A stretch of DNA of 64,000 nt, taken from positions 594,496-658,495 of the forward strand of contig CAVPHS010000001.1 in the NCBI GenBank assembly GCA_963704805.1, written 5' to 3'. A program made the position numbers and the translations under genes. Positions 5,468 through 26,309 of this stretch are shown one piece after another (positions within the stretch are counted from its first letter, which is position 1; each line of letters begins with the position of its first letter). The notes below the pieces were generated by a model. That model saw nothing but the letters and a program-made list of their open reading frames with translations, did not search any database and was not told the DNA's origin. This stretch comes from an uncultured Gemmatimonadales bacterium. GTDB taxonomy: Bacteria > Gemmatimonadota > Gemmatimonadetes > Gemmatimonadales > GWC2-71-9.

Positions 5468-5470
5468 CCG

Positions 5471-9606: not shown

Positions 9607-9649
9607 GCTTCGCGGCGGTTTCTTGAATAAAGAGAAAGACGGGGGTCCC

Positions 9650-10195: not shown

Positions 10196-10279
10196 GCACC
10201 GTGGCACGCGTTAGGCACACGCTCCCGAGCGTCGGGAGAAGTTCAACACACGACACGGATCCCGACGCCGTGTCATCAT

Positions 10280-10312
10280 CCCCTGACCCCCTCTCCGCAA
10301 GCGGAGAGGGGG
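10280..10312. repeat. Family-A palindromic element
   Basis: cccctgaccccctctccgcaagcggagaggggg, 22 nt upstream of the ATG at 10334. Confidence 0.85.
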
Positions 10313-10333
10313 AACGATGGGAGGGAGGTTTGT

Positions 10334-11020
10334 ATGAATGCCGTGGTACGCAGGCGGCTGGAAATGGCCGCGCGGGTCCGAGATTTCCTCCGGACCCACA
10401 AGACGGACGGAGTTGGTGAGGGGCTGGGACTCGCCAAGCTCGAGGAGCTCATCACGCGGGCGGAGGCGCTCGCGTCTCAGCAGCGGGGTGGTCAGGTCGC
10501 GACGCGGGCGGCGACGATGCAGCGCGCCGACATTCGCGAGCTGCTCAAGACCAAGCTACTCCGGTATCTGGTGGCGGTGGGCGCGGTGGCGGCGCGCGGG
10601 AATGTGGAGTTGTCGGCCCATTTCCGTCTGCCGCGCAAGTCCAGCCATCAGGCGTTCTTGACGGCTGCGCGTGGGATGCTGGACAAGGCGACCGCGCAGA
10701 AGGACGTCCTGGTGGGCGAAGGGATGTCGGCGACGTTGCTCGACGACCTCACCGCCAAGCTCGCAGAGTTCGAGAAGACGTTGGAGGCTTCGCGGGCGGG
10801 GCGGCGCGAGCATGTCGAGGCGAGCGCCGATCTCGAAGCCGTTGCCGCCGAGATCGCCGAGCGAGTACGGATGCTCGACGGGCTGGTGCGGTATCGGTTT
10901 GGGGACAACCCGGCGCTGATGGAAGGCTGGGCGAGCGCCCGGGATGTGCTGGGGCCGTTCCGGTCGAAGGCACCGCAGGAGCCAGAGGCCGGCGGTAGTG
11001 AGACGCCCAAGGCTGCATGA
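10334..11020 (+). CDS. Hypothetical all-alpha protein ('gene X'); its 3' end is repeated twice downstream
   Basis: ATG at 10334 (MNAVVRRRLEMAARVRDFL...). No family recognised. The ORF-track start at 10001 runs through a repeat and looks non-coding. Confidence 0.6.
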   Translation: MNAVVRRRLEMAARVRDFLRTHKTDGVGEGLGLAKLEELITRAEALASQQRGGQVATRAATMQRADIRELLKTKLLRYLVAVGAVAARGNVELSAHFRLPRKSSHQAFLTAARGMLDKATAQKDVLVGEGMSATLLDDLTAKLAEFEKTLEASRAGRREHVEASADLEAVAAEIAERVRMLDGLVRYRFGDNPALMEGWASARDVLGPFRSKAPQEPEAGGSETPKAA

Positions 11021-11032
11021 CGGCGGCTTAGG

Positions 11033-11072
11033 GGCGCGGCAGACTGATCACCTGCCGCGCCTTTGTCTTCTC
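11033..11072 (+). terminator. Intrinsic terminator of gene X
   Basis: 10-bp stem ggcgcggcag/ctgccgcgcc with a 9-nt loop, followed by tttgtcttctc. Confidence 0.6.
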
Positions 11073-11076
11073 AGAA

Positions 11077-12117
11077 CTAGTCCAAGACCGCGATTGTAAC
11101 ACCCACACTGCGGAACGAATCCATCGCTGCGAGCTCGGGGCCGACCTGCGACAGGGTGATCGTCTTTCCTAACAGTTTCTCAGGATGCAGGTGTCCCTTG
11201 GTTATCAAATCCAGCATCCCCACGTATTCCCTCGCCTGCAGCCCGTGCGTCCCTCTGATTTCGAGCTCCCGCGCGATCACCTGACTCATCGGCACGGGAG
11301 GATCGCTCTCACGGCCGAGGAGCAGTCCGACCTGGATGTGCCGTCCCCGCTTCCTGAGAGAAAGGATGGAATTGCGGCAGGTGGCGGGACTGCCGAGCGC
11401 ATCGATCGAGACATGGGCGCCGCCTCCCGTCACCTCCCGGATCGCGCCCGGCACATCCGCCACCTTCTGCGCGTCGATGACGATTTCGGCACCAGCACAC
11501 CGAGCCAGCTCGAGTTTCTCCGCGGTGATGTCGACGGCGATCACGCGTGCATCGAGAGCCCGCGCGATCATGGTGGTCGAGAGGCCAACGCCACCGCAGC
11601 CGTGCACGGCCACCCATTCGCCGGGCCGGGTTTGGCCCTGTCCGACGACGGCGCGGTACGCGGTCGCGAAACGGCACCCGAGCAATGCGGCGGTCGTGAA
11701 GGCCATGGCATCGGGGAGCCGCACCAGGTTCAGGTCGGCATAGGGGAGGGCGACGTACTCCGCGAAGCTGCCCCAGCCCGTGAAGCCCGGCTGGTAGTAG
11801 CGATCGCAGATCTGCTCGTCGCCCGCGCGGCAACGCTCGCACGAGCCGCATCCCATCGAGAAGGGGACGGTAATGCGGTCGCCCTGCTTCCATTTGCGTA
11901 CGGCGTTGCCCGTTGCGACCACCGTGCCGGCGAACTCGTGTCCAGGGACGTGTGGCACTTTGACGTCGGCGTCGTGGCCCTTCCATCCGTGCCAGTCGGA
12001 GCGGCAGAGTCCCGAGGCGCCGACTCTTATAACGACGCCGTCGGGGGTCGGCGTGGGATCGGGTACGTCGACTAGGCGAAGCGGGCCTTCGAATTGATCG
12101 TAGCGAACCGCTTTCAT
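11077..12117 (-). CDS. Zinc-binding alcohol dehydrogenase (MDR family)
   Basis: GLCRSDWHGWKG, GHEFAGTVVATG, the structural-Zn Cys cluster GCGSCERC and VHGCGGVGLS. Confidence 0.85.
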   Translation of the reverse strand: MKAVRYDQFEGPLRLVDVPDPTPTPDGVVIRVGASGLCRSDWHGWKGHDADVKVPHVPGHEFAGTVVATGNAVRKWKQGDRITVPFSMGCGSCERCRAGDEQICDRYYQPGFTGWGSFAEYVALPYADLNLVRLPDAMAFTTAALLGCRFATAYRAVVGQGQTRPGEWVAVHGCGGVGLSTTMIARALDARVIAVDITAEKLELARCAGAEIVIDAQKVADVPGAIREVTGGGAHVSIDALGSPATCRNSILSLRKRGRHIQVGLLLGRESDPPVPMSQVIARELEIRGTHGLQAREYVGMLDLITKGHLHPEKLLGKTITLSQVGPELAAMDSFRSVGVTIAVLD

Positions 12118-12205
12118 GTCGGGTGAATCTTACGTAAAAGCAGATCCCGCGCCGCACTTCCGCAGCCCTCATGGGTTCGCTCTATTCCACCGGCAATTCG
12201 CTCCA

Positions 12206-13921
12206 ATGGCCGTGGATTCCCCAGTGAACGCTATGTCTCTTCCTTCTGCCCAAGCGGAGCTTGAGCAATGGCGCGCGGTTCGCGCTGTCGTTCTCGCTCG
12301 CGACTCGCACATTTGCAGGGCTTGCGGCGAAACATGCTCTCAGGGCGAAGCCGACGTTCATCATCTGATTCCCCGTGCCGCCGGTGGGGTCGATGACCCC
12401 GCCAACCTGATCACACTGTGCGATGGCTGTCATGCTGCGCACCATCCGAACCTTCAAGGTACGCTTGCTCGCCGGATGATAGAGCGCTGGGGATTGAGGC
12501 TGGCTAGGGCACTGGATTTCCGGCACGAGTTGGCTGGCGTTGATGAATCGCTCGGCGCGGCGATGCGGCTGCTTGGAGTTACCCATCTCCGCACTCCCCA
12601 GCTAGACGTGATTCTCGCGGCCCTCCGAGGCGAGTCACTCCTTCTCGTCAGCGCGACCGGCTCTGGAAAGTCGCTCTGTTTTCAGGTGCCAATCCTGTTA
12701 ACGCGCGGGTGCGGGTTCGTGATTTCACCGTTGAAGGCGCTCATGAGCCAGCAGGTGGCCGACCTTACGATGAGAAAGGTCCCGGGCACCTTCATCAACG
12801 GTGACCTTGGCCCGCACGAAAAGGAGATCCGGTACCAACTGCTAAGGGATGGCGCAATCAAGTTCCTGTATTGCACGCCGGAGCGCTTCGATCCGAGAAT
12901 GGTTCGCCAGGCTGAAGTGGACGAGATCACTGGTACCCGGCCGGCCTACTTGGTGATCGACGAAGCGCATTGCATCGATCGTTGGGGAAATGACTTCCGC
13001 CCGAACTACGGCAAGTTGGGTGCAATTCGCCAGGCGCTTGGCAGCCCGCCGGTGTTGGCGTTCACCGCCACGGCCGGAACGCAGGGCCAGCGCCGCATTC
13101 TCGAATCGCTCGGCATACCAAACGCTCGCGTAGTGGTGACCGGGGTGAACCGACCGAACATCAAGTTCGTCCGTCTGCCGAACATGAAGGACAAGGTGCG
13201 GTTTTCCCTGATCATGAACCTCCTCAGGGTCATGCCGCATGGTCGTGCCATGTTGTTCGTGCCCACGGTCAACACCGGAAAGCAGCTCCAGGAGGGCCTT
13301 CGCTCGGTGGGATTAGACCTTCCCTTCTTCCACTCCAAACTCGGTACGGCTAACGACCGCGACATGCTGCTGGGCCAGTTCACGGGCCGCGTCGACCCGC
13401 CCGTGAGAGTCGTCATCTGTACCAATGCTTTCGGCATGGGACTCGATTTGCCCGACGTTCGACTCGTGGTTCACTGGCAGCATCCCGCGTCACCGGAAGA
13501 CTACCTTCAGGAATTCGGACGCGCTGGTCGGGATGGCAAGCCTTCGGTCGCTGTCATGTTCACAGCAGAGAGCGACGAAGGATTGCTCAGGTTCATGGCG
13601 GAGAAGACATCCGAGATGGCAGTCGACGACGCGTCCAAGGCCTCGGTGCTCGAAGCCAAGCTCGAAGCAATCAAGGAAATGCGGCGCATTGCGACGTCGA
13701 GAGGCGTCTGCGTTCGCAACAATATCGTCCAGTACTTTGGGGAAATGCCTTCGCCTCGGCGTAGAAGCATCGCCGTACGAATTGCGGAATGGGTGCTCTC
13801 ACGGTCCGTCCGTCTCCGACGAACCCGATTCTGCTGTGACCGGTGCGATCAGGTGAATGTCGACGATGTCGACGACGTCATCGCTTGGGCCGTCGGGGTT
13901 TTTGCACAGGAGGGTAGGTAG
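12206..13921 (+). CDS. HNH endonuclease domain fused to RecQ-family DEAH helicase
   Basis: HNH: CRACGE..DVHHLIPRAAGG..NLITLCDGCHAAHH. Helicase: SATGSGKSLCFQ, VIDEAHCIDRWGNDFRPNY, FTATA, RQLQEFGRAGRDG-like and a Zn-binding CCDRCD tail. Start uncertain (12116, 12206 or 12233). Confidence 0.75.
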   Translation: MAVDSPVNAMSLPSAQAELEQWRAVRAVVLARDSHICRACGETCSQGEADVHHLIPRAAGGVDDPANLITLCDGCHAAHHPNLQGTLARRMIERWGLRLARALDFRHELAGVDESLGAAMRLLGVTHLRTPQLDVILAALRGESLLLVSATGSGKSLCFQVPILLTRGCGFVISPLKALMSQQVADLTMRKVPGTFINGDLGPHEKEIRYQLLRDGAIKFLYCTPERFDPRMVRQAEVDEITGTRPAYLVIDEAHCIDRWGNDFRPNYGKLGAIRQALGSPPVLAFTATAGTQGQRRILESLGIPNARVVVTGVNRPNIKFVRLPNMKDKVRFSLIMNLLRVMPHGRAMLFVPTVNTGKQLQEGLRSVGLDLPFFHSKLGTANDRDMLLGQFTGRVDPPVRVVICTNAFGMGLDLPDVRLVVHWQHPASPEDYLQEFGRAGRDGKPSVAVMFTAESDEGLLRFMAEKTSEMAVDDASKASVLEAKLEAIKEMRRIATSRGVCVRNNIVQYFGEMPSPRRRSIAVRIAEWVLSRSVRLRRTRFCCDRCDQVNVDDVDDVIAWAVGVFAQEGR

Positions 13922-13938
13922 GATTAGGAGCTAACACG

Positions 13939-14245
13939 TTGGAGGCTTCACGGGCGGGGCGGCGCGAGCATGTGGAGGCGAGCGCCGATCTCGAGGCCGT
14001 GGCCGCCGAGATCGCCGAACGCGTCAGGAGCTCGACGGGCTGGTGCGGTATCGGTTAGGGGACAACGCGGCGCTGATGGAAGGCTGGTCGAGCGCTCGGG
14101 ATCCTTTGCTGCGCTCAGGACGAGTTGTGTTGGGACCGTTCCGGTCGAAGGCAGCGCAGGAGCCCGAGGCCGGCGGTAGTGAGACGCCGAAGGCTGCATG
14201 ACGGCGGCTTAGGGGCGCGGCAGACTGATCACCTGCCGTGCCATT
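13939..14245 (+). pseudogene. Degenerate duplicate of the 3' end plus terminator of gene X
   Basis: Aligns by eye to 10781-11065, from ttggaggcttc[g/a]cgggcggggcggcgcgagcatgt to ggctgcatgacggcggcttaggggcgcggcagactgatcacctgccg. It has indels and a ~30-nt insert. Confidence 0.8.
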
Positions 14246-14285
14246 TTGCGGTCCATCTCCAAAAGCAGATCAACGATAGGAGGAT

Positions 14286-14525
14286 ATGCCAATGACGAAG
14301 CGAGTGTTTACGTGGTCGAGCCACGAGATGGAGGCGACTGGGCAGCGCAACGTCGTGGGACGGAGCGTGCCCCGGTCGTTACGGAGAACAAGGCCGAGGC
14401 GATCAACTGAAGCCCGCAGGCTCGCACAGCAGCATCCGCTGAGCCAAGTGGTCATCAAAAGCGACAACGGCAGGGTCGAGCGCGAGTACACGTACGGCGA
14501 AGACCCGCATCGGTTCCGCGGATGA
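14286..14525 (+). pseudogene. DUF2188-like gene with frameshifts
   Basis: The C-terminus ARRLAQQHPLSQVVIKSDNGRVEREYTYGEDP is in the listed frame. The N-terminal VYVVEPRDGGDWAAQRRGTERAPVVTENKAEAIN is in another frame. The frames join at atcaacTgaagcc (~14405), with a second slip at the T-run ~14307. Confidence 0.6.
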
Positions 14526-14577
14526 GTGGCGCTGGAGGCTTAGGCGTGCCGCAAGGGGCTAGCGAGACCCATGACGA

Positions 14578-16332
14578 TCAGTCCTCCGGAGGACAATTTT
14601 CGGCACCCAAGACCTTTAGCAGAGAATCCTGGTCCATCGCATGGCGTGCCTCAATGATCGAGATGAGAGAATCCAGCGACCGCCGGTTGCTGGGTGATGA
14701 CTGGCGTTTCGATTTCAGGACCGCAAGACTGTCCAGGTCAGCCTGGGCTCGGCGCTGGGCAGCCTGGACAGCCGAAGACGCTTTTGTGCAGGGTCCCTGT
14801 GGGAGAGATAAGCACCCCGTCGGCTGGCCGTGTTCAGGTGCCAGGACATTATCGAGTCGGACGTGGGGGCGCTCTGCGGACACGAGGAATTCTTCCTTGC
14901 GCGCACCAATGGTCACCGTCACGCTGGTCGCACGCAGGTAGTTTCCCTGGACTGCAGTTTCAGGTCCGCATTTCTTTCCCATCTTAGAGAGTGCCACTCG
15001 AATGGACGAACTGTCACCGAATTCGATTCGTGCGGGAACCGCAGCCATTCTCAGGGAATCTGTCGACAGAACCCAGACAAATACTAGTCGCGGTGGATGA
15101 TCAGGTAGCGATGCGATGACAGCGGGAAGCAAGTTTTCCGTGACGATCCCCCTCGGGACGTGGACGCCGCTCCGGTCTAGATCGCCCTCGCCCGTCAGAG
15201 AATACTGTCCGCTGTCGATCAGTGCCTGAGCAGAATACCCCGCCACTTCACGAGAATAACTCGTGCGCTGAACGTAGCTGTGAATGGTGGACATACCACG
15301 ATCGACTTCGGTCCGCCACTCGTCAGTGTACTGGTCTTTGTTCCCCTCATTCCACGTCGATGAGACGTAGCGCTCGAGAATTGCAGTCCCCTCGGGAGAA
15401 AGAGTCTTCGAGTAAACGGTCCTCGTACTTATAGTTCGTATATGGTTGTTGTCCTTCTCAAAGAACGTCACTCCATCAAGGACATCGGGATCGATCCGCA
15501 ACGAATCGTTCACGCTCGCCTTTGCCAGAGACGGGTCAGGCGGCGCTTCGCGGTGAACCGAAGACCCAAAGGTCACACGAACAGCTTCGGAAAGAGGCAC
15601 CGCGTCCTGCGAAGCAATCGTCCCTAGCTGAGCGCGAACGTAGTTGATTGGAAGCGCGAAGTTCAGGTTTTGCGCCCCTGGTTCTGCCCATGTCCCGAGG
15701 ACGAGCCCGATCGCATGACCCCCCTCATCGAGTATGGGTCCACCGCTACTCCCGGGCGACGTAGGAGCCGAAATCTGAAAGAGCCTGTGATCCCCCTGGT
15801 TCCTCACACCGCTGAGTAGCCCATCACTGACCGTTGCCTCAAACCCCTCTGGTGCCCCAACAACGTAGATCCGCTGTCCCACCGAAGTACTATCCGAATT
15901 GCCAAGGGTGATCGTAGGGAGATCGACTCCCTCCATTTTGATGATGGCATAATCGAACCGGTGATCCACGCGATAGACTCCGGTAACTACCCGCGTGTCC
16001 CCGTCTGGCAGGCGAACGGAAGCTGAAGAGGCGCCGTCGATGACGTGAGCGGCCGTGACTAACAACCCGTTGGGAGAGATAACGAAGCCGCTCCCAGTAA
16101 AACCGCCACTCGCCTTCTTAACCGCGATGAATGCTGTTGCCCTCCTCGCCGCGTCGATGGTTCGAGCGCCCGCGGGATGCTGCGCATGAAGCGCGGAGGA
16201 GAACGACCCCAGGACAAGAAGGAGGCCGATATCTCTCGGACTTAGTTTTGTGGCCAAGAATGAAGAACTCCGTGCGTACGGTGCCCCCTTACGGGATGCG
16301 CCTAAGGTGCGGCGCCAGGCTTTCATGTTCAC
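14578..16332 (-). CDS. Secreted trypsin-like serine protease (S1C-like) with ~330-aa unknown C-terminal region
   Basis: GSGFVISPNGLLVTAAHV (His), DYAIIKM (Asp), GSSGGPILD (Ser), and an N-terminal signal/TM. Confidence 0.75.
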   Translation of the reverse strand: MNMKAWRRTLGASRKGAPYARSSSFLATKLSPRDIGLLLVLGSFSSALHAQHPAGARTIDAARRATAFIAVKKASGGFTGSGFVISPNGLLVTAAHVIDGASSASVRLPDGDTRVVTGVYRVDHRFDYAIIKMEGVDLPTITLGNSDSTSVGQRIYVVGAPEGFEATVSDGLLSGVRNQGDHRLFQISAPTSPGSSGGPILDEGGHAIGLVLGTWAEPGAQNLNFALPINYVRAQLGTIASQDAVPLSEAVRVTFGSSVHREAPPDPSLAKASVNDSLRIDPDVLDGVTFFEKDNNHIRTISTRTVYSKTLSPEGTAILERYVSSTWNEGNKDQYTDEWRTEVDRGMSTIHSYVQRTSYSREVAGYSAQALIDSGQYSLTGEGDLDRSGVHVPRGIVTENLLPAVIASLPDHPPRLVFVWVLSTDSLRMAAVPARIEFGDSSSIRVALSKMGKKCGPETAVQGNYLRATSVTVTIGARKEEFLVSAERPHVRLDNVLAPEHGQPTGCLSLPQGPCTKASSAVQAAQRRAQADLDSLAVLKSKRQSSPSNRRSLDSLISIIEARHAMDQDSLLKVLGAENCPPED

Positions 16333-16509
16333 AAACCCAATTCTACGCTAAATGATGGGTTCCCTTACCAAGCTGCATGGAGGCGCGATCAGACCTCGTG
16401 ACCAGCACGCGCTCCACATGACTTTGGCGGTTCCTTCAGCCATTGCTTCACTCCGCCATGTGCTCGCTCACTAGGACTGGAGCTACTGAGACCTGCTGTG
16501 CCAGTGATC

Positions 16510-17766
16510 TCATCGCAGATCCCAGTACCAGTTAAAATCGTAACCATCGGTCAATTCAAAACGCCGGAACCCCATGGTGCGCAATGTCCCAAAGAAGTCG
16601 GTGTTCTGAGACATCTGGTGCGCGGTTACGCGCCCGGCCAGGACGTATTTCATGTGTAGCGTCGTCGCTGCGCGGCCGAGCACGGTTACCTCCACATCCA
16701 TCCCCTGGTCGAGAAACAATGACTCCGCGCGCTTTGCAAACTCGCGGCGGTTTTGAATTATCGTCGCTTCAGTAGCACGAAGCGCCGCCTGTTGTAGCAG
16801 ACTGTCTTGATGTAATGCTTTTCTAAGGAGTTGCGCTCGTCGTTGCTGCTGTGGAGCAGTGAGCGGCGAATACAGAGCATTTAACTGCTCTCTCGCAGGT
16901 GCGATCCTCCCCCACCCGTCCTTGTTGGGGCGCAACAGCACGTCTGCGGAATCAAGTCGTCTCGTGACTGCACGGACATGGAGAGAATCGTGAGGAATAG
17001 TGAGGTGCGAACCGTGAACAAGGTCTTCAAATCGAAAAAGGTCTGCTGTGGTTCGCGTGGCAGGCACGCGCAGACTTGCCATCAGCTGCATGGCCGATGC
17101 ACTGTCGCCATGCCGCTTATCAGCAGACGCTGCGGGAGCAACGGAGCGCGATTCAGGTCTGCCGCTAACGGAGCCGACAAATATGCCCGCAAGCGCAGCG
17201 GCTACCATGGCAATGACAGTTCCCCGTGACAACTGCTGAATTGAAGGTCTGGGAACCGTTGTTTCTGTGGAGTGTCCCCCAGGGGTGAATACCGTTCCGC
17301 ATCGAGAACACAGGAAGGACGATTCCCATCGCGTGACGAGCTTTGGCAGCTCAGTCTGATTCCACTGCTTCTGTCGCCAGAGATATCGCGCGCACGGGAT
17401 TGCCAGCAGGACGCCGAAGAGGATACCTGCACCGGGATTGGCGAGGCCTCCGAAGTAGAGAGCCAGCCCCGCAAGTACACCCATCGCAGCCCACCCGCTC
17501 AATCTTAGAACTTGGGGTGGAGCGAGATCGCGTGCGAGCAGAGTCTTGTGAGTTCCCTGCGTCTTCGAACCAAAAACGCCTACTCCAAGCCCGCCCCGCG
17601 CCACGCCTGCACCGACTCCTCCGGTCTGCTCATCCACCATAGTCGTTCCTTCACGGTAGACGAGCGATACCCGACGAACGTCCGCAGCGCCGCAGCTGGG
17701 GCACGAGAGATCCATTTTCAGCTCCCGACGGAGGGCTTTCAGAAGATGCGTCGCAAAACGAACCAT
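16510..17766 (-). CDS. Membrane protein with two zinc-ribbon motifs and unknown C-terminal domain
   Basis: CPSCGA and CSRCGTVF motifs flank predicted TM helices (WAAMGVLAGLALYFGG.., VIAMVAAALAGIFVG). Start at 17766 or 17715. Confidence 0.55.
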   Translation of the reverse strand: MVRFATHLLKALRRELKMDLSCPSCGAADVRRVSLVYREGTTMVDEQTGGVGAGVARGGLGVGVFGSKTQGTHKTLLARDLAPPQVLRLSGWAAMGVLAGLALYFGGLANPGAGILFGVLLAIPCARYLWRQKQWNQTELPKLVTRWESSFLCSRCGTVFTPGGHSTETTVPRPSIQQLSRGTVIAMVAAALAGIFVGSVSGRPESRSVAPAASADKRHGDSASAMQLMASLRVPATRTTADLFRFEDLVHGSHLTIPHDSLHVRAVTRRLDSADVLLRPNKDGWGRIAPAREQLNALYSPLTAPQQQRRAQLLRKALHQDSLLQQAALRATEATIIQNRREFAKRAESLFLDQGMDVEVTVLGRAATTLHMKYVLAGRVTAHQMSQNTDFFGTLRTMGFRRFELTDGYDFNWYWDLR

Positions 17767-17794
17767 GGTTAGTGTTAGGTCTTGTGGAGATCGC

Positions 17795-17953
17795 CGAGCA
17801 GCTGCGGCTGCTCGGAGGGGCCTGTGCGGTGTCGGGTTCGGGATAGCGTCGACCTGATGGAGGCGTGGGCCAGCGCGCGGAATGTGCTGCGGCCGTTGAA
17901 GCCGAAGGGGCGGCTCGAAGACAGGTGGTGGTGAAAGGCCGAAGGCGGCGTGA
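17795..17953 (+). pseudogene. Third, more diverged 3' fragment of a gene-X homologue
   Basis: EIAEQLRLL..VDLMEAWASARNVLRPLKPKG parallels EIAERVRMLDGLVRYRFGDNPALMEGWASARDVLGPFRSKA of gene X. Confidence 0.6.
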
Positions 17954-17955
17954 TG

Positions 17956-18019
17956 CCTCACCCCCCGGCCCCTCTCCCGTTCGCTACGCTCAGGGGAGGC
18001 CCTTTCGGAAGAGGGGGAG
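17956..18019. repeat. Family-A element, long-loop variant
   Basis: cctcaccccccggcccctctccc...ggaagagggggag. Confidence 0.6.
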
Positions 18020-18043
18020 TGTAAGCAGACAGGCGCTCTGGGT

Positions 18044-18088
18044 GAAGGTCACGATCCTTCGCGCCTCGCGGCGCTCAGGACAACGCCT
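18044..18088. repeat. Family-B repeat, degenerate copy
   Basis: gatccttcgcgcctcgcggcgctcaggacaacgc. Confidence 0.5.
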
Positions 18089-18121
18089 GGCGCGCCCTGT
18101 TCACTCGAGGACCTCTTTGAT

Positions 18122-18420
18122 TTACGCCGTCCTGAACTCCATCCACATCGGTCTGTGATCTGATATGTGGTACTTCACGAAGGTCTTGTAGTCCTTTGTG
18201 CCGCGGGTCTGATAGAGATCGGGGAAGAGCACCTGGTCGTAGTCGAAGACTCCCATTTCCCTGTGAACGCCTGGCCGACAACGCCGGGGAAGAACGCGAT
18301 CTGGTCGTAGTGCGCGCCGAAGCAATCGAAGAGCCAACCTGAGAGGAGCGTCCAGGCACCTGCAGGCCCTTTTTCGTGAGAGCCTTGTAGATCGGATCCG
18401 CGGGGTCACATCAACGAATG
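18122..18420 (-). pseudogene. Remnant of an endonuclease/exonuclease/phosphatase (EEP) family gene
   Basis: Terminal peptide GVFDYDQVLFPDLYQTRGTKDYKTFVKYHISDHRPMWMEFRTA carries the SDHRP motif typical of EEP C-termini. The upstream part is scattered over other frames. Confidence 0.55.
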
Positions 18421-18568
18421 TGCCGCGTTTCCGCCTGTCAGTGCCGCAAAAACGCCCTAGCTCCGCTCGTTCGGCCCCGGCATCATTTCCCTTGTCAGCT
18501 GAGGCCGGAGGAGCACTGCTGGCCGCATTTCGGTCCGGGCGCTACTTAATGTCTCGGAGGGCACCACT

Positions 18569-19111
18569 ATGAACGCGATCAGACATCTCGTCGTCGGATG
18601 GATGCTCACGGCTTTGCTGCCGGTGCAAGCAGCTACAGCCCAAGCTCCCTCTGGCGCCACCGCTCGGTGTCGGGACAGTTCGTATTCGTATAGTACAAAC
18701 CACAGTGGCACGTGCTCGCATCACGGAGGCGTCGCCCAATGGCTCTCGCCGAGCACGGCAGCGCCGGCATCGAAGTCCCGTGATTCTGGCCCGGTTCGCC
18801 AAGGGACTCTTACCGCAGCTCAAGCAAGGGATCACGTGGGCGAGACCGCGACGGTGTGCGGCGTCGTATCGAGCGCGCGGTACGCTGCGTCCAGTCGCGG
18901 TCAGCCGACGTTTCTGAATCTCGATGAACCCTATCCGGCCCAGATTTTCACCATCGTCATCTGGGGATCAGCGCGCGGTGCGTTTACGCAAGCGCCTGAG
19001 GCAGCCTACTACGGCAAGAAGATCTGCGTTACCGGACTCATCGATACGTACCGCGGGAGCCCTCAGATCGTGGTTGGCAATCCCGATGCGATTCGAGTGA
19101 TGACGCACTAG
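18569..19111 (+). CDS. Secreted DUF3761-domain protein
   Basis: Signal peptide, then ATARCRDSSYSYSTNHSGTCSHHGGV, which matches the DUF3761 motif as I recall it. C-terminal beta-rich domain. Confidence 0.65.
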   Translation: MNAIRHLVVGWMLTALLPVQAATAQAPSGATARCRDSSYSYSTNHSGTCSHHGGVAQWLSPSTAAPASKSRDSGPVRQGTLTAAQARDHVGETATVCGVVSSARYAASSRGQPTFLNLDEPYPAQIFTIVIWGSARGAFTQAPEAAYYGKKICVTGLIDTYRGSPQIVVGNPDAIRVMTH

Positions 19112-19148
19112 TCTTGCGTTTCCCATCGCGGGCGAGAGGCGGATCCGT

Positions 19149-19505
19149 ATGAAACTTGCCATGATCGTGGGCACGCTGTGTTTGAGCCTTGTCTCGATTT
19201 CGGGAATGGCCTGGTCCCCTCATCCAGGCGTGGCATCCTGTGATGCCTCCGACTTGAGTGAGATCGTTGGTTACACTGCCGTTACATCGACCAATGTGGT
19301 TGGCGAATTCGAAGGAGCGGACTACGATAAGCCGGTGAAGCTTGACAACGGAATGATCTTCGAGTTCACAGAATACAACTATTCGTACAGCTATCGCCCT
19401 GATGTTATTATCTTCGCTCGGTCCGCAACCATCCAAGACCGTCAAGTCAATTTGTACAAGCTATTGATCGCGGATGAACTCTACGATGTTATTCGCGTGC
19501 GATAG
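19149..19505 (+). CDS. Hypothetical secreted protein
   Basis: MKLAMIVGTLCLSLVSISG signal-like N-terminus. Lower-GC codon usage. No family recognised. Confidence 0.5.
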   Translation: MKLAMIVGTLCLSLVSISGMAWSPHPGVASCDASDLSEIVGYTAVTSTNVVGEFEGADYDKPVKLDNGMIFEFTEYNYSYSYRPDVIIFARSATIQDRQVNLYKLLIADELYDVIRVR

Positions 19506-19937
19506 CCAGTGACGGGGTCGCCAATTCGAGTAGTTCGAAGTGAGTCCGCCCAATCGAGAACGCAGAATTTCGTCGTGAGTTCACCGACCGCATGATGGGA
19601 TACCTCTTTAACCCCGCAACGACGTGAGAGGGAAGACCAGTCGAGTTCGTTGCTAGCTTCCCACCCGCACCCTGAATGCCTTTTGATAACCGTTTCGAAT
19701 CATAGATGACCGATCGTCGTTCAATCGGCGAATGACGGACTCCAAGTCCTGATGAACCTGGCTAATGCACGAATTCGCGTAGTCAGGATCGGCGACGTGA
19801 AAGGGCTGGACCAGGAATGGGCCAGTCGATGGCTGAATCTGGCCGCGACATGACTGGTCGAGCTCAGGTAGGTAAACGGACGTCTGGATTGTCGACCTGC
19901 AGTTGACACAGTCTGAAACGACTGTAATTCATATCGT

Positions 19938-20300
19938 GTGGCTATTCCTCGGTGGGTCAAGTCTCTCGTCGTCTACCTATCCGGGGGTACCCTTGCCATC
20001 GGGTCGGTCTCATCTGTCGCGGTCGCGCAAAACCCGAAACCAAAGCCACCCGTCGAAAAAGATTCGACAAGAATCCTCATTGATTCCGGGTACACGCGTT
20101 TGGGAGAGAAGTTTCTCCTCACCCGTGCCGACTCTCTCGTGGTTCGTGCAAATGGTGACACCGCGCACTTTAAGCGGAGCCACCCGACGACGGGCCACGC
20201 GTCGCACGCGTCGCACGCGTCTCACGCCTCACATGCCTCACACGCCTCGCACTCATCGCACTCCTCACACTCGTCCCATTCCTCGGGCGGCTGGATCTGA
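19938..20300 (+). CDS. hxsA: His-Xaa-Ser repeat precursor protein (HxsA-like)
   Basis: 120 aa, GTG start, signal-like N-terminus. C-terminus is GHASHASHASHASHASHASHSSHSSHSSHSSGGWI: 6x HAS plus 4x HSS. Confidence 0.8.
   Translation: MAIPRWVKSLVVYLSGGTLAIGSVSSVAVAQNPKPKPPVEKDSTRILIDSGYTRLGEKFLLTRADSLVVRANGDTAHFKRSHPTTGHASHASHASHASHASHASHSSHSSHSSHSSGGWI
20196..20285 (+). repeat. Ten tandem 9-nt His-Xaa-Ser coding repeats
   Basis: cacgcgtcg-type units read directly. Codon choice varies between units, so conservation is at the peptide level. Confidence 0.9.
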
Positions 20301-20307
20301 CCTGCCG

Positions 20308-20652
20308 GTGAGTACCAACGATGGGGCTCCAGCTTTCGAAACAGTCGAGAGGACGGACGATTTCGTTCTACTGCGGGTCGATACTAAGCTGTATGCTCGC
20401 GAGTCCCTCTTCCGCGCGTGCTACCAGTTCACCGATCGTTGTTACTTGTTTCTGCGCTCTGATGGCGACAACGCGATCGTCGTCGAGATTCGTCGTAGAC
20501 CCGCGTCCGCGCCGCTCGGCGAACTGCTTGGTGACTTCGGCAACGAGCTCCTGAATCAACAAGTCCGGACCGACATTGCGCGAGAAACCCGCGCGATTCG
20601 GGAGATGATCGTTGCCCAGGCGTTCCGAGAGTCCGATTTGCATGCGGGGTAG
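20308..20652 (+). CDS. hxsD: HxsD-like small protein
   Basis: In-frame GTG at 20308. FVLLRVDTKLYARESLFRACYQFTDRCYLFL...GNELLNQQVRTDIARETRAIREMIVAQAF resembles the LLNDYxLRE-motif family named HxsD in TIGRFAMs (from memory). Confidence 0.65.
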   Translation: MSTNDGAPAFETVERTDDFVLLRVDTKLYARESLFRACYQFTDRCYLFLRSDGDNAIVVEIRRRPASAPLGELLGDFGNELLNQQVRTDIARETRAIREMIVAQAFRESDLHAG

Positions 20653-20872
20653 GAGCGTGGTGCTGTCTCATACGATCTACCCGCGATCGGCATTGGAATC
20701 GGCGCGGTCAGCCTTTGCGGGGCTGTGTGACATCGATGTACGGAGTGACGGAGCGGATGTGCGTGTAACGATATCGGCCCGGGATGGCGCGCCCCTTGAA
20801 GCGGTTGATGAGTTCCTGTCATACGTGCTCTCGGCGGCGATTGAGTCTCACCTCGCCAGCTCGACTCAATGA
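20642..20872 (+). CDS. Second HxsD-like small protein (diverged paralogue)
   Basis: VVLSHTIYPRSALESARSAFAGLCDIDVRSDGADVRVTI..AVDEFLSYVLSAAIE parallels the N-terminal two-thirds of 20308..20652. Its start overlaps the previous stop, and its stop overlaps the next ATG (ATGA). Confidence 0.5.
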   Translation: MRGRSVVLSHTIYPRSALESARSAFAGLCDIDVRSDGADVRVTISARDGAPLEAVDEFLSYVLSAAIESHLASSTQ

Positions 20873-22365
20873 CGAAGGTGGTCTTTCATCCTCCCGCTCG
20901 CTATGCCGGGCCTGGGGACTATGAGCTTTTGCCATTTCGCTTCATTGATCTGGACGATCGCAAGGTCGTCGTCAACGAAGTCGGCGAGTACGAACTGCTC
21001 GACCAGAACGCGTTCCAGCAGTTCGTAAGACACTCGCTCTCTCCGACCTCGGACACCTATCGCAACCTCAAGGCCAAGCATTTCCTCCGGGACCCAGAGT
21101 CGTTGGTCCCGCTTAGACTTCTGTCCACCAAATACAGGACCAAGCGCGCGTTTCTAGAGGGGTTTACTAGGCTCCACATCTTCGTCGTCACGCTGCGGTG
21201 CGATCACTCCTGTCACTATTGCCAGGTGTCGCGCGTCAGCATGAACCGCTCAAAGTACGACATGTCACCAGAGTCCGCGCGAGCGGCGCTCGATTGGGTG
21301 TTTCGCTCCCCCTCCCGATATCTCAAGATCGAATTCCAAGGCGGCGAGCCGCTGCTCAATATCGAGCTCATCAGAGACATTACAGAGGAGGCGAAGCGGC
21401 GGGCCGTGGCCTCGGAGAAAGAGGTTGAGTTCGTCGTGGCAACGAACCTTTCCTTCCTGAGCGACGACATTCTGGCGTTCCTGAAGGCGCATAACATCGG
21501 CATCTCGACATCCCTCGATGGGCCCGCATTCATCCACAACGTCAACCGCCCTCGGCCTGGTAATGACGCTCACGAAACGACGGTGCGCGGCATAGCCCGG
21601 GCGCGAGCAGCCCTCGGACGGGGTGCTGTTTCAGCCTTGATGACAACGACACGGCTGAGTCTTGAGCATCCCGAGGCGATCGTGGATGAATACATCAAGC
21701 AAGGTTTTGACCGAATCTTCCTGCGCCCCATCAGTCCGTATGGGTTTGCGGTGCGGACGCAGCAGAAGACCGGCTATGACGTGCAGGCCTTCCTGGAGTT
21801 CTACAAACGCGCGTTAGATCGAGTGATTGCGATCAATCGGAGCGGCAAATGGATGGTCGAGATCTACGCGCGCATTTTGCTGACAAAAATCCTGACTCCC
21901 TTCGCTACAGGCTATGTCGACCTGCAATCGCCGGCTGGCGCTGGAGTTAGCGTTGCGGTCTACAGCTACGATGGCGACGTCTATGCAACGGACGAATCGC
22001 GGATGCTCGCCGAGATGGGCGACCGCACCTTTCGTTTAGGCAACGTTCATTCGAACAGTTATGAAGAGGTGTTCGGCGGTCCACTGCTGAGGTCCCTCGT
22101 CGCGGCCTCCTGTGTCGAGTCCCTTCCCGGTTGCTCAGACTGTGCATTCCAAACCTTTTGCGGCGCGGATCCCGTGGAAAACTACGCCACCCAGGGGGAT
22201 GTCTTCGGCCATCGACCGACGAGTCGCTTCTGTGCTCGGAATATGGAGATCATCAGGCATCTACTCCGTCTATACCACAGCGGAGATGCGTTCATTCAAC
22301 AGTTGTTTTGGAGCTGGGTCGAAAACGTGCCGGTGGATTCCCTTACGGAACGCTTACCAAACTAA
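20869..22365 (+). CDS. hxsB: Radical SAM/SPASM maturase (HxsB-like)
   Basis: CDHSCHYCQ (CxxxCxxC) and GGEPLL. C-terminal Cys-rich SPASM-like region CVESLPGCSDCAFQTFCGADP. Confidence 0.8.
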   Translation: MTKVVFHPPARYAGPGDYELLPFRFIDLDDRKVVVNEVGEYELLDQNAFQQFVRHSLSPTSDTYRNLKAKHFLRDPESLVPLRLLSTKYRTKRAFLEGFTRLHIFVVTLRCDHSCHYCQVSRVSMNRSKYDMSPESARAALDWVFRSPSRYLKIEFQGGEPLLNIELIRDITEEAKRRAVASEKEVEFVVATNLSFLSDDILAFLKAHNIGISTSLDGPAFIHNVNRPRPGNDAHETTVRGIARARAALGRGAVSALMTTTRLSLEHPEAIVDEYIKQGFDRIFLRPISPYGFAVRTQQKTGYDVQAFLEFYKRALDRVIAINRSGKWMVEIYARILLTKILTPFATGYVDLQSPAGAGVSVAVYSYDGDVYATDESRMLAEMGDRTFRLGNVHSNSYEEVFGGPLLRSLVAASCVESLPGCSDCAFQTFCGADPVENYATQGDVFGHRPTSRFCARNMEIIRHLLRLYHSGDAFIQQLFWSWVENVPVDSLTERLPN

Positions 22366-22367
22366 CG

Positions 22368-23585
22368 ATGCGCTTATGGTCAGCTGGGCAGGCACACGGC
22401 ATCACGCGGCCAGTGCTGGGCAGAGTTACGACGCAGCCAGTACCCGAGGGCGAACGTCACGACTTCATCGCGTATGGGAGCGAAACCGAGCTAGCCCGTT
22501 TCGGACCTGAGCTCGCTCGCTATCCGGGTGTCCTGTGTCGCGGCTCCCTGGGCGCCATCCCCAAGACAGCGGTCATTCATTCGGCCCCCCATCTGGAATA
22601 CTTGTCTGATGGTGACGTCGTTCGACTGTCGCCGGACGGAACGATCAACGTGCTGTATCGGCGCTCTTCACACTACAACACGATTCTCACCACGGAGCGC
22701 TGCAACAGTTTCTGCCTGATGTGTTCGCAGCCACCCAAACCAGCGGACGACTCATACCGCGTTGCCATGATTCTGCGCCTGCTCGAGCTCATCGACCTAG
22801 AGGCGATCGAATTGATCATCAGCGGCGGTGAACCAACGCTCCTGGGCGGACGCTTTCTGGATATCATCGAGAAAGCCAGGGTGACCCTGCCAAGGACAGC
22901 CCTGCACGTTTTGACGAACGGTCGGCACTTCAAGAGCAAAGACTTTGCACGTCGCCTCGCGGATATCGATCACCATGATTTGATGCTGGGCATTCCGCTC
23001 TACTCCGACATTCCCGAACTGCACGACTACGTCGTCCAAGCGTCCAATGCGTTTGATGAGACGCTCGAAGGGTTCTACAACCTGGCGGCGACAGGAGTGC
23101 GGCTGGAGCTACGTGTTGTTTTGCATAAACAAACCTGCGAACGCCTACCCCGACTGGCTGAGTTCGTGACCCGGAATCTCCCTTTCGTCGAGCACGTCGC
23201 ACTCATGGGGCTCGAGATGTTCGGGTTCACTCCGCGTAATCTGGACGTGCTGTGGATCGACCCTGCAGACTACGCGCCGCAACTCGAAGAGGCCACTTTG
23301 ACGTTGGCCACGAGAGGAATGAACGTTTCGATCTACAATCATCAGCTCTGCACGATTCCGCGATCGCTCTGGCCGTACGCACGAAAGTCCATATCTGACT
23401 GGAAGAATGTGTACCTGGACGTCTGCGCTTCGTGTGGAGTGAAGGACTTCTGCGGTGGATTCTTCCAGTCTGCGACCAAGAAGCACAGCGCTCACATAGC
23501 GCCCTGTGCGGCGTTAACAGGCAGGGCACTTAACTACATGCGCAAGCTCCACAGCCTGGATTCCGCTGCGACGCGGGTGAACTAA
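22368..23585 (+). CDS. hxsC: Radical SAM protein (HxsC-like)
   Basis: CNSFCLMCSQ (CxxxCxxC) and SGGEPTLL. C-terminal CASCGVKDFCGG. ATG lies 3 nt after the HxsB stop. The listed start at 22131 overlaps hxsB and is rejected. Confidence 0.75.
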   Translation: MRLWSAGQAHGITRPVLGRVTTQPVPEGERHDFIAYGSETELARFGPELARYPGVLCRGSLGAIPKTAVIHSAPHLEYLSDGDVVRLSPDGTINVLYRRSSHYNTILTTERCNSFCLMCSQPPKPADDSYRVAMILRLLELIDLEAIELIISGGEPTLLGGRFLDIIEKARVTLPRTALHVLTNGRHFKSKDFARRLADIDHHDLMLGIPLYSDIPELHDYVVQASNAFDETLEGFYNLAATGVRLELRVVLHKQTCERLPRLAEFVTRNLPFVEHVALMGLEMFGFTPRNLDVLWIDPADYAPQLEEATLTLATRGMNVSIYNHQLCTIPRSLWPYARKSISDWKNVYLDVCASCGVKDFCGGFFQSATKKHSAHIAPCAALTGRALNYMRKLHSLDSAATRVN

Positions 23586-24904: not shown

Positions 24905-24912
24905 ACCTGGCC

Positions 24913-26211: not shown

Positions 26212-26309
26212 GGGTGAAGTGCCTCAGTAGTACAAGAAAACAGGGCGACAAGTGTTTCCGAGTTGCTGTGCCAATTCGGAGCCTAGCTCAAAATCGCAGC
26301 CGTCGACAC

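Follow-up and report, generated by a model that had tools for sequence, protein, structure and literature searches.

We analyzed a 64,000-nucleotide stretch of DNA (the window) from an uncultured Gemmatimonadales bacterium. The part of interest begins with a full-length gene, here called gene X, and continues with two blocks of other genes, each followed by a copy of the gene X 3' end (Table 1). As had been predicted from the sequence, the alcohol dehydrogenase (ADH) and HNH-RecQ genes lie between copies A and B, and the DUF2188 pseudogene, the protease and the Zn-ribbon protein lie between copies B and C. The product of gene X had no Pfam, PHROG or PADLOC match and had a weak match (23 bits) to NCBIfam PQLLE_fam. 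An AF2 model (pLDDT 85) has long helices, and a fold search gave no significant match. We found 977 homologues of gene X. It is specific to Gemmatimonadales and belongs to a multi-copy family, with at least 3-5 copies per genome.

Table 1. Features of the gene X array in the window.
Feature	Position	Strand	Remarks
REP-type palindrome CCCCTCTCC..GGAGAGGGGG	10272..10322	.	immediately 5' of the gene X ribosome-binding site
Gene X	10334..11020	+	228 aa, all-helical; full-length head copy of the array
Repeat copy A	10775..11064	+	part of gene X plus hairpin, duplicated downstream
Hairpin A	11033..11068	+	10-bp G+C stem, 9-nt loop, T-rich tail; terminator-like
Zn-dependent alcohol dehydrogenase (ADH)	11077..12117	-	Pfam ADH_N/ADH_zinc_N
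Probable remnant of hairpin right arm (CCCGCGCC)	12146..12153	+	between ADH and HNH-RecQ; read by eye
HNH-RecQ cassette core	12217..13929	+	92% nt identity to L064 529-2246
Repeat copy B	13933..14245	+	pseudogene fragment of the gene X 3' end (aa ~149-228), with hairpin B at 14214-14242
Frameshifted DUF2188 gene	14246..14525	+	cargo; Pfam
Trypsin-like (HtrA-type) serine protease	14578..16332	-	cargo; long C-terminal extension
Zn-ribbon membrane protein	16510..17712	-	cargo; no family match
Repeat copy C	17784..17953	+	diverged fragment of the gene X 3' end (aa ~183-228), different gene X lineage
REP-type palindrome	17954..18021	.	between copy C stop and hairpin C
Decayed hairpin C	18032..18065	+	L001/L052/L010 type; covariance model, blast
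Further lower-GC accessory region	18100..27500	.	past copy C; GC profile

We found that the repeated gene X 3' end is real. Aligning the three copies (repeat finder and MAFFT) gave the boundaries listed in Table 1. Copy A consists of the terminal ~246 nt of gene X, the stop codon and the hairpin. Copy B is ~92% identical to copy A overall; the two have ~290 bp in common, in aligned blocks of 91-95% identity, with a single mismatch within 10981-11058. Copy B has a 24-nt insertion (~14102-14126), and its reading frame is broken by a 1-nt deletion near 14023 (tblastn). Copy C has ~70% DNA identity, and the protein HMM covers amino acids 183-215. These results bear out the original prediction, which had described a repeat of the gene X end and its terminator hairpin near 13939-14245, with indels and with a post-stop string that is indeed identical in copies A and B, and a more diverged third fragment. 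The blast E-values for the repeat copies (1e-106 and 9e-19), together with the count of the exact hairpin pattern (one occurrence in 64 kb vs. 0.18 expected), rule out chance. A covariance model of the hairpin found only three sites in the window.

The differences between copies A and B were of all types (G/C, G/A, C/G, T/G and others) and were not confined to adenines, and there was no reverse transcriptase among the window ORFs scanned (20-39457). We therefore rejected a diversity-generating retroelement.

Copy C is the most distal and the most decayed of the three copies. Its stop codon is followed by a REP-type palindrome of ~68 nt and then by a decayed hairpin. A REP palindrome between stop codon and hairpin is also found in the related loci L063, L036 and L013 and in the L052 fragment, and the hairpin C region has blast matches to the sequence that follows gene X in L001, L005, L011 and L013. 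Copy C comes from a REP-containing gene X lineage, with a hairpin type unlike that of copies A and B. Hairpin C itself is a weak call (16.4 bits, E = 0.04 with the covariance model), and it no longer folds better than shuffled sequences.

Hairpin A (GGCGCGGCAGACTGATCACCTGCCGCGCC, at 11033-11061) starts 12 nt past the stop codon. It scores 54 bits with the covariance model, and its RNA fold is -28.4 kcal/mol (z = -3.3). The family consensus is GGCGCGG-loop-CCGCGCC followed by TYGTTGC, with a stem-loop of 29-33 nt and a loop of variable length; conservation of sequence ends 7 nt past the stem. This consensus occurs almost only 3' of gene X (~33 of 56 pattern matches are at gene X ends), and hairpin A is a family-wide boundary element. 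It is probably an intrinsic terminator, having a stable G+C stem-loop on the sense strand after a stop codon and a T-rich tail; the tail consensus is only moderately U-rich. Across 45 sequences, pairing in the stem is kept through G.U pairs, and on the sense strand only. This variation points to a likely role as RNA or as a single strand (a terminator), so that a mere end of homology would fit as well as a recombination site. In many gene X copies, similarity begins at the upstream REP palindrome or ~27 nt before the ATG. Gene X and its hairpin are a discrete promoter-less unit of ~0.75 kb (ribosome-binding site, ORF and hairpin), several of which are present per Gemmatimonadales genome.

The cargo in the window has a GC content below that of the flanks, as determined from the GC profile. 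The HNH-RecQ gene probably extends from 12233 to 13921 (the mechanical ORF is 12116-13921). Its product has HNH, DEAD, Helicase_C and RecQ_Zn_bind domains (Pfam) and matches the PADLOC 'DpdF' model PDLC02859 (E = 8e-181). The ADH gene has host-like GC (GC3 0.79). It is absent from six related HNH-RecQ junctions, where the HNH-RecQ block directly adjoins the hairpin. Between the two genes in the window is the short sequence that we read as a remnant of a hairpin right arm, followed by GCAG..CCCT.A.GGTTCGC, the conserved start of the HNH-RecQ cassette; the remnant is a weak call, and its register was not recovered in the MAFFT alignment. Because the six related loci are without ADH and because of this remnant, block 1 is probably two units, with ADH probably inserted separately between hairpin A and the HNH-RecQ cassette. 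In block 2, the DUF2188 gene has 82% nucleotide identity to an intact gene in L005, which there adjoins a gene X fragment.

We compared the junctions of the HNH-RecQ blocks in L064, L065, L067, L070, L071 and L072. The blocks themselves are 93-98% identical in DNA sequence. In contrast, the 150 nt 5' of them (the gene X end and hairpin) are 33-81% identical and have differing types of hairpin loop. The left junction of this unit was constant, at the 3' margin of the hairpin that follows the stop codon and within ~20 nt of CTGCCGCGCC-TTGTTGC, rather than inside the gene X 3' end as had been predicted. Of 306 ends of high-identity matches, 25 lay between -30 and +15 nt relative to the hairpin tail (0.55% expected), most of the 25 coming from the HNH-RecQ cassette alone, so that this breakpoint evidence is largely that of one family. 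The right end of the block was variable. Where a gene X remnant comes next, it starts at position 445, 470, 656 or ~690 of the profile; elsewhere there is none. Strictly defined units, each of cargo with a site of its own, would therefore require extra deletions. L070 and L099 have the same cargo-to-remnant junction and diverge ~45 nt further on, with a switch of gene X lineage inside the conserved TPKAA-stop block. Such a pattern suggests that homologous exchange took place in the conserved end of gene X.

Similar arrays recur. At ~20 independent loci, cargo blocks of 0.3-7 kb are separated by gene X 3' ends or hairpins that share one orientation, and ~32 of ~32 extra hairpins or fragments agree in orientation with their own array. 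The cargo includes TIR proteins, restriction enzymes, GmrSD, RT-protease, toxin-antitoxin pairs and HNH-RecQ. In L001 (gene X 91% identical), TIR, MmeI/Eco57I-type and ResIII cargo precedes a gene X fragment (aa 137-227); in L052, a 325-bp VapB-like cargo lies between 150-bp repeats; and L005 has 4-5 boundaries within 8 kb. Repeats equivalent to those of the window are also present in L064-L070. L066/L067 have six co-oriented gene X ends 5' of HNH-RecQ, mostly at single-gene spacing (a Kelch-repeat protein, a patatin and others), and L142 has four. Overall, the arrays reach 6-7 sites with ~1-kb spacing. Gene X is not a single-copy target: near-full copies are found in mid-array in L066/L067 and in tandem in L042, and internally deleted copies also occur within arrays. 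A few fragments are 3'-truncated (the main copy in L042, and L050). Hairpin types often differ inside one array (A and B vs. C in the window; L052, L023 and L035), which argues for import rather than local duplication. HNH-RecQ, DUF2188, DUF3761 and a 118-aa ORF are common to several arrays, and array content differs between closely related genomes.

We looked for a recombinase that might move these blocks. None was found among the window ORFs scanned (20-39457) or in six Pfam-annotated contexts of related loci, in agreement with the original prediction that no recombinase is visible. A motif scan of the window plus ~1.25 Mb of related loci (~1.3 Mb in all), which was non-exhaustive and blind to atypical recombinases and to every DDE transposase, found only xerD-like genes (L015 and L020) and an IntI-like gene (L053). 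The xerD-like genes are of a housekeeping type, both kinds lie outside arrays, and there is no gene X hairpin near the IntI-like gene of L053.

The arrays resemble several known systems. ICEs, IMEs and CIMEs accrete in tandem at the 3' ends of genes or tRNA genes, as at the streptococcal fda and tRNA-Lys sites (PMC7563491). In both cases, direct repeats from the target gene 3' end bracket the cargo (here in the window, with copies A, B and C, and in L001, L052, L005 and L064-L070), many units are without a recombinase, and older units are more decayed. In contrast to that accretion, no integrase-bearing member was seen among ~140 loci, the anchor is multi-copy, the junction lies past the stop codon at the hairpin, and units are often single genes, at up to 6-7 sites. 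The crossover position is constant on the left of HNH-RecQ, at the hairpin tail, and the starts of gene X remnants vary widely, from aa 137 to 203. Integron arrays and CALINs (clusters of attC sites without an integrase) also have co-oriented hairpin sites, each 3' of a short cargo unit, with strand-specific structure, cassettes shared between arrays, and cargo rich in toxin-antitoxin and defense genes; the basic gene X unit is likewise promoter-less. As in CALINs, co-oriented sites close short cassettes that are common to several arrays. However, no intI adjoins any gene X array, and the architecture of attC is absent: the stem-loop is 29-33 nt vs. 55-141 nt, there is no R''/R' (AAC..GTT) or L''/L' organization, and no AAC that could pair with the tail GTT occurs in the 14 nt 5' of the hairpin. 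Furthermore, the gene X sites are homologous remnants of one gene, the cargo is in both orientations, and multi-gene units are possible.

Defense-island hotspots without mobility genes are known in E. coli (PMC10121019) and as core defense hotspots in P. aeruginosa (PMC10250203). They too have variable, defense-rich cargo beside a conserved anchor gene and no visible mobility genes. Unlike gene X arrays, with a multi-copy anchor whose 3' end is reiterated between cargo units, they lie between single-copy core genes and have no internal repeated boundary. In the orphan 3'-end arrays of rhs, cdiA and mafB, and in silent pilS copies, the 3' end is variable and functional and is swapped into the expressed gene. 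Those arrays also consist of a full-length gene followed by co-oriented 5'-truncated copies among small genes, with exchange through conserved sequence. We rejected displacement of the Rhs/CdiA type, with its variable C-terminal domains and cognate immunity genes, for gene X, because the gene X C-terminus is conserved and what varies is unrelated genes on either strand. The pdif modules of Acinetobacter have 28-bp dif-like sites in alternating orientation. Like other Xer-exploiting elements (IMEX), they are small modules without a recombinase, with short palindromic sites and presumably a host enzyme acting in trans. The gene X hairpin differs: it contains nothing dif-like, its loop varies in length, and its copies are strictly co-oriented. 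Group IIC introns insert just past terminator hairpins or attC sites (PMC3001079, PMC4424553), an orientation-specific insertion directly 3' of a stem-loop that is recognized as a structure. Gene X cargo contains no intron ribozyme, and an Rfam search of the window gave no match.

We saw no circular form and no empty site, and it is from comparisons of sequence only that we infer that the cassettes are mobile. The best reading, and to us about an even bet, is accretion of cassettes at the hairpin edge by an enzyme acting in trans. Accessory DNA would be added directly 3' of the gene X hairpin by Campbell-type integration of a circular molecule. Each unit would bring or leave a hairpin and a gene X 3' remnant of its own, giving a co-oriented array in which a head copy is followed by cargo and remnant in alternation. 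For the window this would correspond to gene X with hairpin A, ADH, the hairpin remnant, HNH-RecQ, copy B, the three genes of block 2, copy C and further cargo. The exchange would be site- or structure-specific, at or beside the hairpin, with catalysis in trans. Remnant lengths would vary as redundant gene X copies lose 5' parts and keep the cis-acting 3' end. The proposal that the copies mark successive additions of foreign DNA in an attL/attR-like array is supported, by co-oriented arrays with differing cargo in ~20 loci and by copies from different gene X lineages. The classical form of this proposal, an island encoding its own integrase, is unsupported, with no tyrosine or serine recombinase found at any examined array.

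The main rival reading, possible if doubtful, is that homologous recombination does this with no recombinase of its own. Being conserved and dispersed, the gene X 3' end and hairpin would serve as portable homology. Single or double crossovers that depend on RecA and join copies of gene X in one genome or in different genomes would insert, swap or delete adjacent DNA; circles from recombination of direct repeats would re-enter any gene X copy; and the hairpin boundary would be the end of homology. The 3' third is indeed the most conserved part of gene X, copies A and B have ~290 bp of 91-95% identity, the switch between L070 and L099 is of the expected kind, and the loci scanned have no detected recombinase. 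Gene X is also located at synteny breaks, and at orthologous UPF0182 loci the flanks have 88-94% DNA identity vs. only 62-65% protein identity for gene X, which suggests allele replacement. Against this, the hairpin loop beside the 93-98% identical cassette differs in six contexts. The exchanges would all have to resolve in the ~17-nt invariant right arm and tail, since a crossover in the longer conserved blocks further 5' would have carried the loop along. In addition, gene X lineages that differ by 20-50% are a poor substrate for RecA.

We consider it improbable that the arrays are decayed conventional integrative elements, in which integrase-encoding islands or ICEs/IMEs would have targeted the gene X 3' end and lost the integrase, leaving att sites and CIME-like remnants mobilizable only by a related intact element. 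The architecture is that of attL/attR accretion at a gene 3' end with the most distal copy most decayed, and in streptococci intact elements are fewer than CIMEs and microCIMEs that lack an integrase (PMC7563491). However, no intact integrase-bearing member was seen among the ~140 loci, a unit can consist of one gene or of a cargo of only 325 bp, arrays of 6-7 sites at ~1-kb spacing are unlike decayed ICEs or IMEs, and remnant starts vary widely. Disfavored, and very improbable, is an absence of mobility, with decayed tandem gene X paralogues between which genes were gained by unrelated processes. The multiple copies of gene X, the near-full or internally deleted copies in arrays (L042 and L066/L067) and the few 3'-truncated fragments would fit this view. 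The different lineages within one array, the same cargo behind unrelated gene X ends, the lower GC of the cargo and the differences among closely related genomes do not.

Thus, gene X arrays of soil Gemmatimonadales appear to be integron-like, made of swappable accessory blocks, many of them defense-related, with no recombinase nearby. If accretion at the hairpin edge is correct, these bacteria build and shuffle accessory, often defense, genes at boundaries made of the gene X 3' end and hairpin with no cis-encoded recombinase. Cassette arrays would then have a third origin, in addition to integrons and CIME accretion. The hairpin model would then be a simple sequence handle for accessory and defense cassettes in an abundant, poorly studied phylum, and the search for an enzyme acting on the hairpin would become tractable. 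Even under homologous recombination, a dispersed multi-copy gene would be the portable homology that organizes defense islands.

A further notion, which we consider unlikely, is that gene X and its hairpin form the autonomous element of a cassette system not described before. The ~0.75-kb unit would itself be mobile, and the cargo blocks would be non-autonomous derivatives left with just the cis-acting 3' end and hairpin, comparable to MITEs, which retain the ends of transposons. The gene X protein, helical and rich in arginine, would belong to machinery that recognizes the single-stranded hairpin, and insertion beside existing hairpins would build integron-like defense arrays.

The bracketed blocks are as originally predicted, but lower-GC accessory DNA runs past copy C to ~27.5 kb, with no detectable closing repeat. 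This region contains an EEP pseudogene fragment, DUF3761, the 118-aa ORF and HxsA/D/B/C, and encodes beta-lactamase-like, PDC-S48-like and GGDEF-like proteins. DUF3761 and the 118-aa ORF are also found within the gene X arrays of L027, L069 and L142.

We found that the 3' end of gene X, a multi-copy gene of the Gemmatimonadales, recurs in the window together with a stem-loop that follows its stop codon, as the original prediction had it. By repeat finder and MAFFT, a span made up of the last ~246 nt of gene X, the stop codon and the post-stop hairpin (copy A) is found again as copy B. Aligned blocks of copy B are 91-95% identical to copy A. The two share a hairpin type and a 41-nt run that starts at the stop codon and reaches into the stem-loop, and they are near-identical across their last 80 nt. 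The reading frame of copy B is broken by a 1-nt deletion near 14023, and a 24-nt insertion in this copy contains GCGCTCAGGA, the core of a second REP-like family. A third copy (copy C) is ~70% identical. It has retained its hairpin: the stop is followed by a REP-type palindrome of ~68 nt and then by a decayed stem-loop, which scores 16.4 bits with the hairpin covariance model. In its REP-containing architecture and its type of hairpin, copy C matches other lineages (the related loci L063, L036 and L013, and the L052 fragment), and the palindrome is inserted in the same place in these four loci. That copy C is the original 3' end of a resident gene like that of L063 or L001 was unsupported; its identity to many lineages is ~75%, and no lineage is particularly close. 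A template and variable repeat of a DGR was rejected, since the A/B mismatches are not adenine-specific. No tRNA or tmRNA target gene was found within the window.

Features of the window, with positions in nt and strand in parentheses
Feature	Position	Sequence or placement
Gene X	10334-11020 (+)	
Copy A	10775-11064	
Copy B	13933-14245	
24-nt insertion in copy B	~14102-14126	TCCTTTGCTGCGCTCAGGACGAGT
Copy C	17784-17953	
Stem-loop of copy C	near 18032-18065	
ADH (alcohol dehydrogenase) gene	11077-12117 (-)	
Probable right-arm remnant	12146-12153	CCCGCGCC
HNH-RecQ cassette core	12217-13929	
REP-type palindrome family	10272-10322	CCCCTCTCC..GGAGAGGGGG; directly 5' of gene X ribosome-binding site
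REP-type palindrome family	17954-18021	between copy C stop and hairpin
REP-type palindrome family	5229-5269, 30310-30360, 30725-30761, 48558-48601, 49157-49205, 49304-49347	
Second short repeat family	8118-8341, 9057-9089, 9529-9631, 18055-18080	GCAGGTCCCTCGCGCCTGCGGCGCTCGGGATGAC
RHH and nucleotidyltransferase-like gene pair	5471-6291 (-)	
Endonuclease/exonuclease/phosphatase-family fragment	18122-18409 (-)	just 3' of copy C
His-Xaa-Ser system	19938-23585	
ORFs ending in Cys-rich motif	26310-26615 (-), 27649-28662 (+)	

The second short repeat family is clustered in non-coding DNA 5' of gene X and also lies beside the hairpin of copy C; it is present in many related loci.

Among gene X copies, DNA similarity starts ~27 nt 5' of the ATG, sometimes with a REP palindrome, and stops just past the post-stop hairpin. 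The conserved unit is thus a ribosome-binding site, an ORF and a hairpin, without a conserved promoter. The hairpin consists of GGCGCGG, a variable inner stem and loop, and CCGCGCC, followed by TYGTTGC, and conservation ends 7 nt past the stem. In 45 sequences, its ten stem pairs are maintained, and two inner pairs vary (C-G/U-G/U-A and A-U/G-U/G-C) such that pairing is valid only on the sense strand. The folding energy is -28.4 kcal/mol (z = -3.3). The hairpin looks like an intrinsic terminator, and a further role is suggested by the conservation of its sequence among paralogues that share only 60% protein identity. Gene X ends are almost the only places where it occurs: of 56 loose pattern matches in 0.77 Mb, ~33 had a gene X end no more than 160 nt away, and the only sites scoring in the 64-kb window were those of copies A, B and C. 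Since only sites tied to gene X score, the hairpin was rejected as a generic terminator of this genome. It had no match in Rfam at gathering thresholds, and it resembles a dif-like or attC-like site in neither sequence nor architecture. Some gene X lineages have an alternative stem-loop in its place, CTACGGCTCCGC..GGGGCCGTAG followed by GTTTT or TTGTTT, which the hairpin model does not pick up (L001, ~8386-8445; L019, ~10327-10375; L099 and L140, directly 3' of short gene X remnants).

The 228-aa product of gene X had no match in Pfam, PHROG or PADLOC. Its only NCBIfam match, PQLLE_fam, was sub-threshold (23 bits, cut-off 80), and we found no literature on that family. A protein search gave 977 homologues, nearly all unnamed proteins from soil metagenomes and Gemmatimonadales MAGs; look-up of the window's own protein returned no record. 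The AlphaFold (AF2) model (pLDDT 85) has very long helices in a bundle and a disordered tail. Its structural matches in PDB and BFVD were helical bundles, none of them significant, and a sequence profile search of PDB gave nothing.

Gene X is multi-copy within genomes, with at least 5 copies on 5 contigs in one species-representative MAG and 3 in others, and its neighbours on both sides are different in nearly every locus. No conserved partner, neither neighbour nor recombinase, emerged when ~1,445 ORFs of ~52 loci were clustered. A solo gene X in L060 (9894-10583) lies between a type II secretion operon and MoxR/ATP-synthase genes, without accessory DNA. In L144, L145 and L147, where MoxR is 88-91% identical to that of L060, there is a BTAD-AAA_16 or PAS-kinase gene in place, and neither gene X nor the secretion operon. 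Because these relatives also differ across the whole flank, the solo gene X is at a synteny break. In orthologous loci with a UPF0182 flank, flank DNA is 88-94% identical, gene X protein is only 62-65% identical, and the content between differs. The RHH and nucleotidyltransferase-like gene pair, probably a toxin-antitoxin system, is a semi-conserved companion at a variable distance (0.8-5.7 kb) 5' of gene X; it is also found in L005, L009, L013 and L023 (~71% DNA identity).

The repeats in the window belong to a family-wide, hairpin-delimited cassette array with no recombinase detected in cis. In L001, a gene X 91% identical to that of the window is followed by genes for a TIR protein and MmeI/Eco57I-type and ResIII proteins, and then by a gene X fragment (aa 137-227). 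The minimal case is L052, in which a 325-bp VapB-like remnant lies between 150-bp direct repeats, each running from gene X aa 203 to the stop, through the hairpin and 25 nt beyond; a solo hairpin of another type is found 3' of these repeats. There are 4-5 boundaries in 8 kb of L005, between SocA/Panacea, trypsin, DUF1508 and DUF2188 genes. L066/L067 has six co-oriented gene X ends spaced 0.7-2 kb apart, and most of the intervals hold one gene each (Kelch-repeat protein and patatin among them). A near-full gene X comes next, followed by HNH-RecQ. L070 has GmrSD and a methylase past its array, and L064 has an RT-protease. In all loci with two or more gene X-derived sites, the ~32 extra sites are oriented as their array, the sole exception being one 74-nt match (E = 0.004). 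Gene X fragments are overwhelmingly 3'-terminal, with 5' starts that vary from aa 137 to 203; the search was seeded with 3' motifs, so fragment-only loci are biased in this respect and fragments flanking full-length genes are free of the bias. A few gene X copies are 3'-truncated or internally deleted (L042, L050).

Cargo is shared between gene X ends of different lineages. In a metagenome scan with the window HNH-RecQ protein, every close relative had a gene X end or hairpin immediately on its 5' side, and several had one on their 3' side as well. Five loci (L064, L067, L070, L071 and L072) have a common junction, CCGCGCC TTGTTG CAGTGGCCCTTAGGTTCGCC... ATG, and L065 has the same junction plus a 45-nt insertion. 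On the 5' side of this junction, the loci have hairpin loops and gene X remnants of different types. Pairwise identity is 93-98% over the first 900 nt of the cassette and 33-81% over the 150 nt 5' of it. Between loci, 25 of 306 high-identity match ends fall within -30 to +15 nt of the hairpin tail (0.55% expected), mostly from the HNH-RecQ cassette alone; L042/L019 is an independent case. The right side of HNH-RecQ is less tidy, with gene X remnants that have differing start points, or none, after the same gene. L070 and L099 have a cargo-to-remnant junction in common, and the gene X lineage switches ~45 nt later. Copies of another cargo, a 216-aa secreted protein (L070, L048 and the window), are too highly diverged for linkage comparison.

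The blocks bracketed by the copies in the window hold the genes first described there: ADH (-) and HNH-RecQ (+) in block 1, and a frameshifted DUF2188 gene, a trypsin-like protease (-) and a Zn-ribbon membrane protein (-) in block 2. The HNH-RecQ copy is 92% identical to that of L064 over 12217-13929, and its true start is probably the ATG at 12233. The octamer CCCGCGCC, 5' of the conserved cassette start, is a probable remnant of a hairpin right arm, a step that we infer, as MAFFT did not recover its register. In relatives, HNH-RecQ adjoins the hairpin without ADH; the window has ADH, whose GC is host-like, and the probable remnant. Block 1 is probably two units.

The original prediction, tandem accretion of attL/attR type at the 3' end of gene X, was right in outline. 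A Campbell-type insertion of circular DNA next to an existing site, which here would be a gene X hairpin, is expected to give what is seen: direct repeats that are co-oriented and of mixed lineage, with cargo in common. A classical island encoding its own integrase was not supported. No recombinase had been visible in the window, and none was found in the Pfam-annotated contexts. A motif scan registered xerD-like genes (L015, L020) and an IntI-like gene (L053), none of them in an array. Decayed classical islands, which need integrase-bearing relatives, are for that reason quite unlikely. The cargo in common and the mixture of lineages contradict pure decay of gene X paralogues, which we regard as highly improbable.

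The reading we prefer, though we hold it to be about evenly balanced between right and wrong, is that cassettes recombine at or beside the hairpin through an enzyme that would act in trans. The point of exchange in six contexts falls within the ~17-20 nt that separate the hairpin loop from the start of the cassette. This stretch is too short, and too consistently used, for ordinary homologous recombination between sequences that differ by 20-50%. The main rival is RecA-dependent exchange, in which the conserved gene X end would serve as portable homology. It accounts for the lineage switch in L070/L099, the near-identity of the ends of copies A and B, and the presence of gene X at synteny breaks, and we take it to be possible but doubtful. 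Gene X and its hairpin might also be the autonomous member of a new cassette system, with the cargo blocks as its non-autonomous derivatives, a notion that we consider rather improbable. The xerD-like genes are divergent and ~1.1 kb 5' of gene X (L015, ~4814-6379 (-); L020, ~7352-8923 (-)); the integron-integrase-like gene (L053, 455-1516 (-)) is 2.3 kb 5' of a distant (36%) gene X homologue without a hairpin. These genes could be coincidence or a lead to a trans-acting enzyme.

The gene X arrays work like accretion of ICEs, IMEs and CIMEs at gene 3' ends (PMC7563491) and like integron/CALIN arrays. Unlike the former, they have no integrase-bearing member, and unlike the latter, they have neither intI nor attC organisation. 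They are similar to recombinase-free defence hotspots (PMC10121019, PMC10250203), but have an internal reiterated boundary and a multi-copy anchor. Orphan arrays of rhs/cdiA are also alike, except that variability in those arrays resides at the 3' end. Group IIC introns (PMC3001079) likewise insert directly after a terminator hairpin; in contrast, the window has no intron ribozyme (Rfam). Our literature search found no description of this architecture in Gemmatimonadota.

Between ~12 and 27.5 kb of the window, GC drops from 0.64-0.68 to 0.52-0.61, indicating that the accessory region extends well beyond copy C. No closing repeat was detectable in the window with the hairpin covariance model. 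Just 3' of copy C is a C-terminal fragment of an endonuclease/exonuclease/phosphatase-family gene (motif ...SDHRPMW...), by eye pseudogene debris. The lower-GC region contains a full His-Xaa-Ser system, with an HxsA repeat peptide, an HxsD-like protein and the radical-SAM maturases HxsB and HxsC. An Hxs cluster 77% identical in DNA is also found in L064, ~5.5 kb 3' of the same HNH-RecQ cassette. Two otherwise unrelated ORFs, one of them encoding an MBL-fold hydrolase, lie at the right edge of the lower-GC region and end in the same Cys-rich motif, CC[KR][VI]C[ST]TGKACG[DN][ST]CI...C..GCAC.
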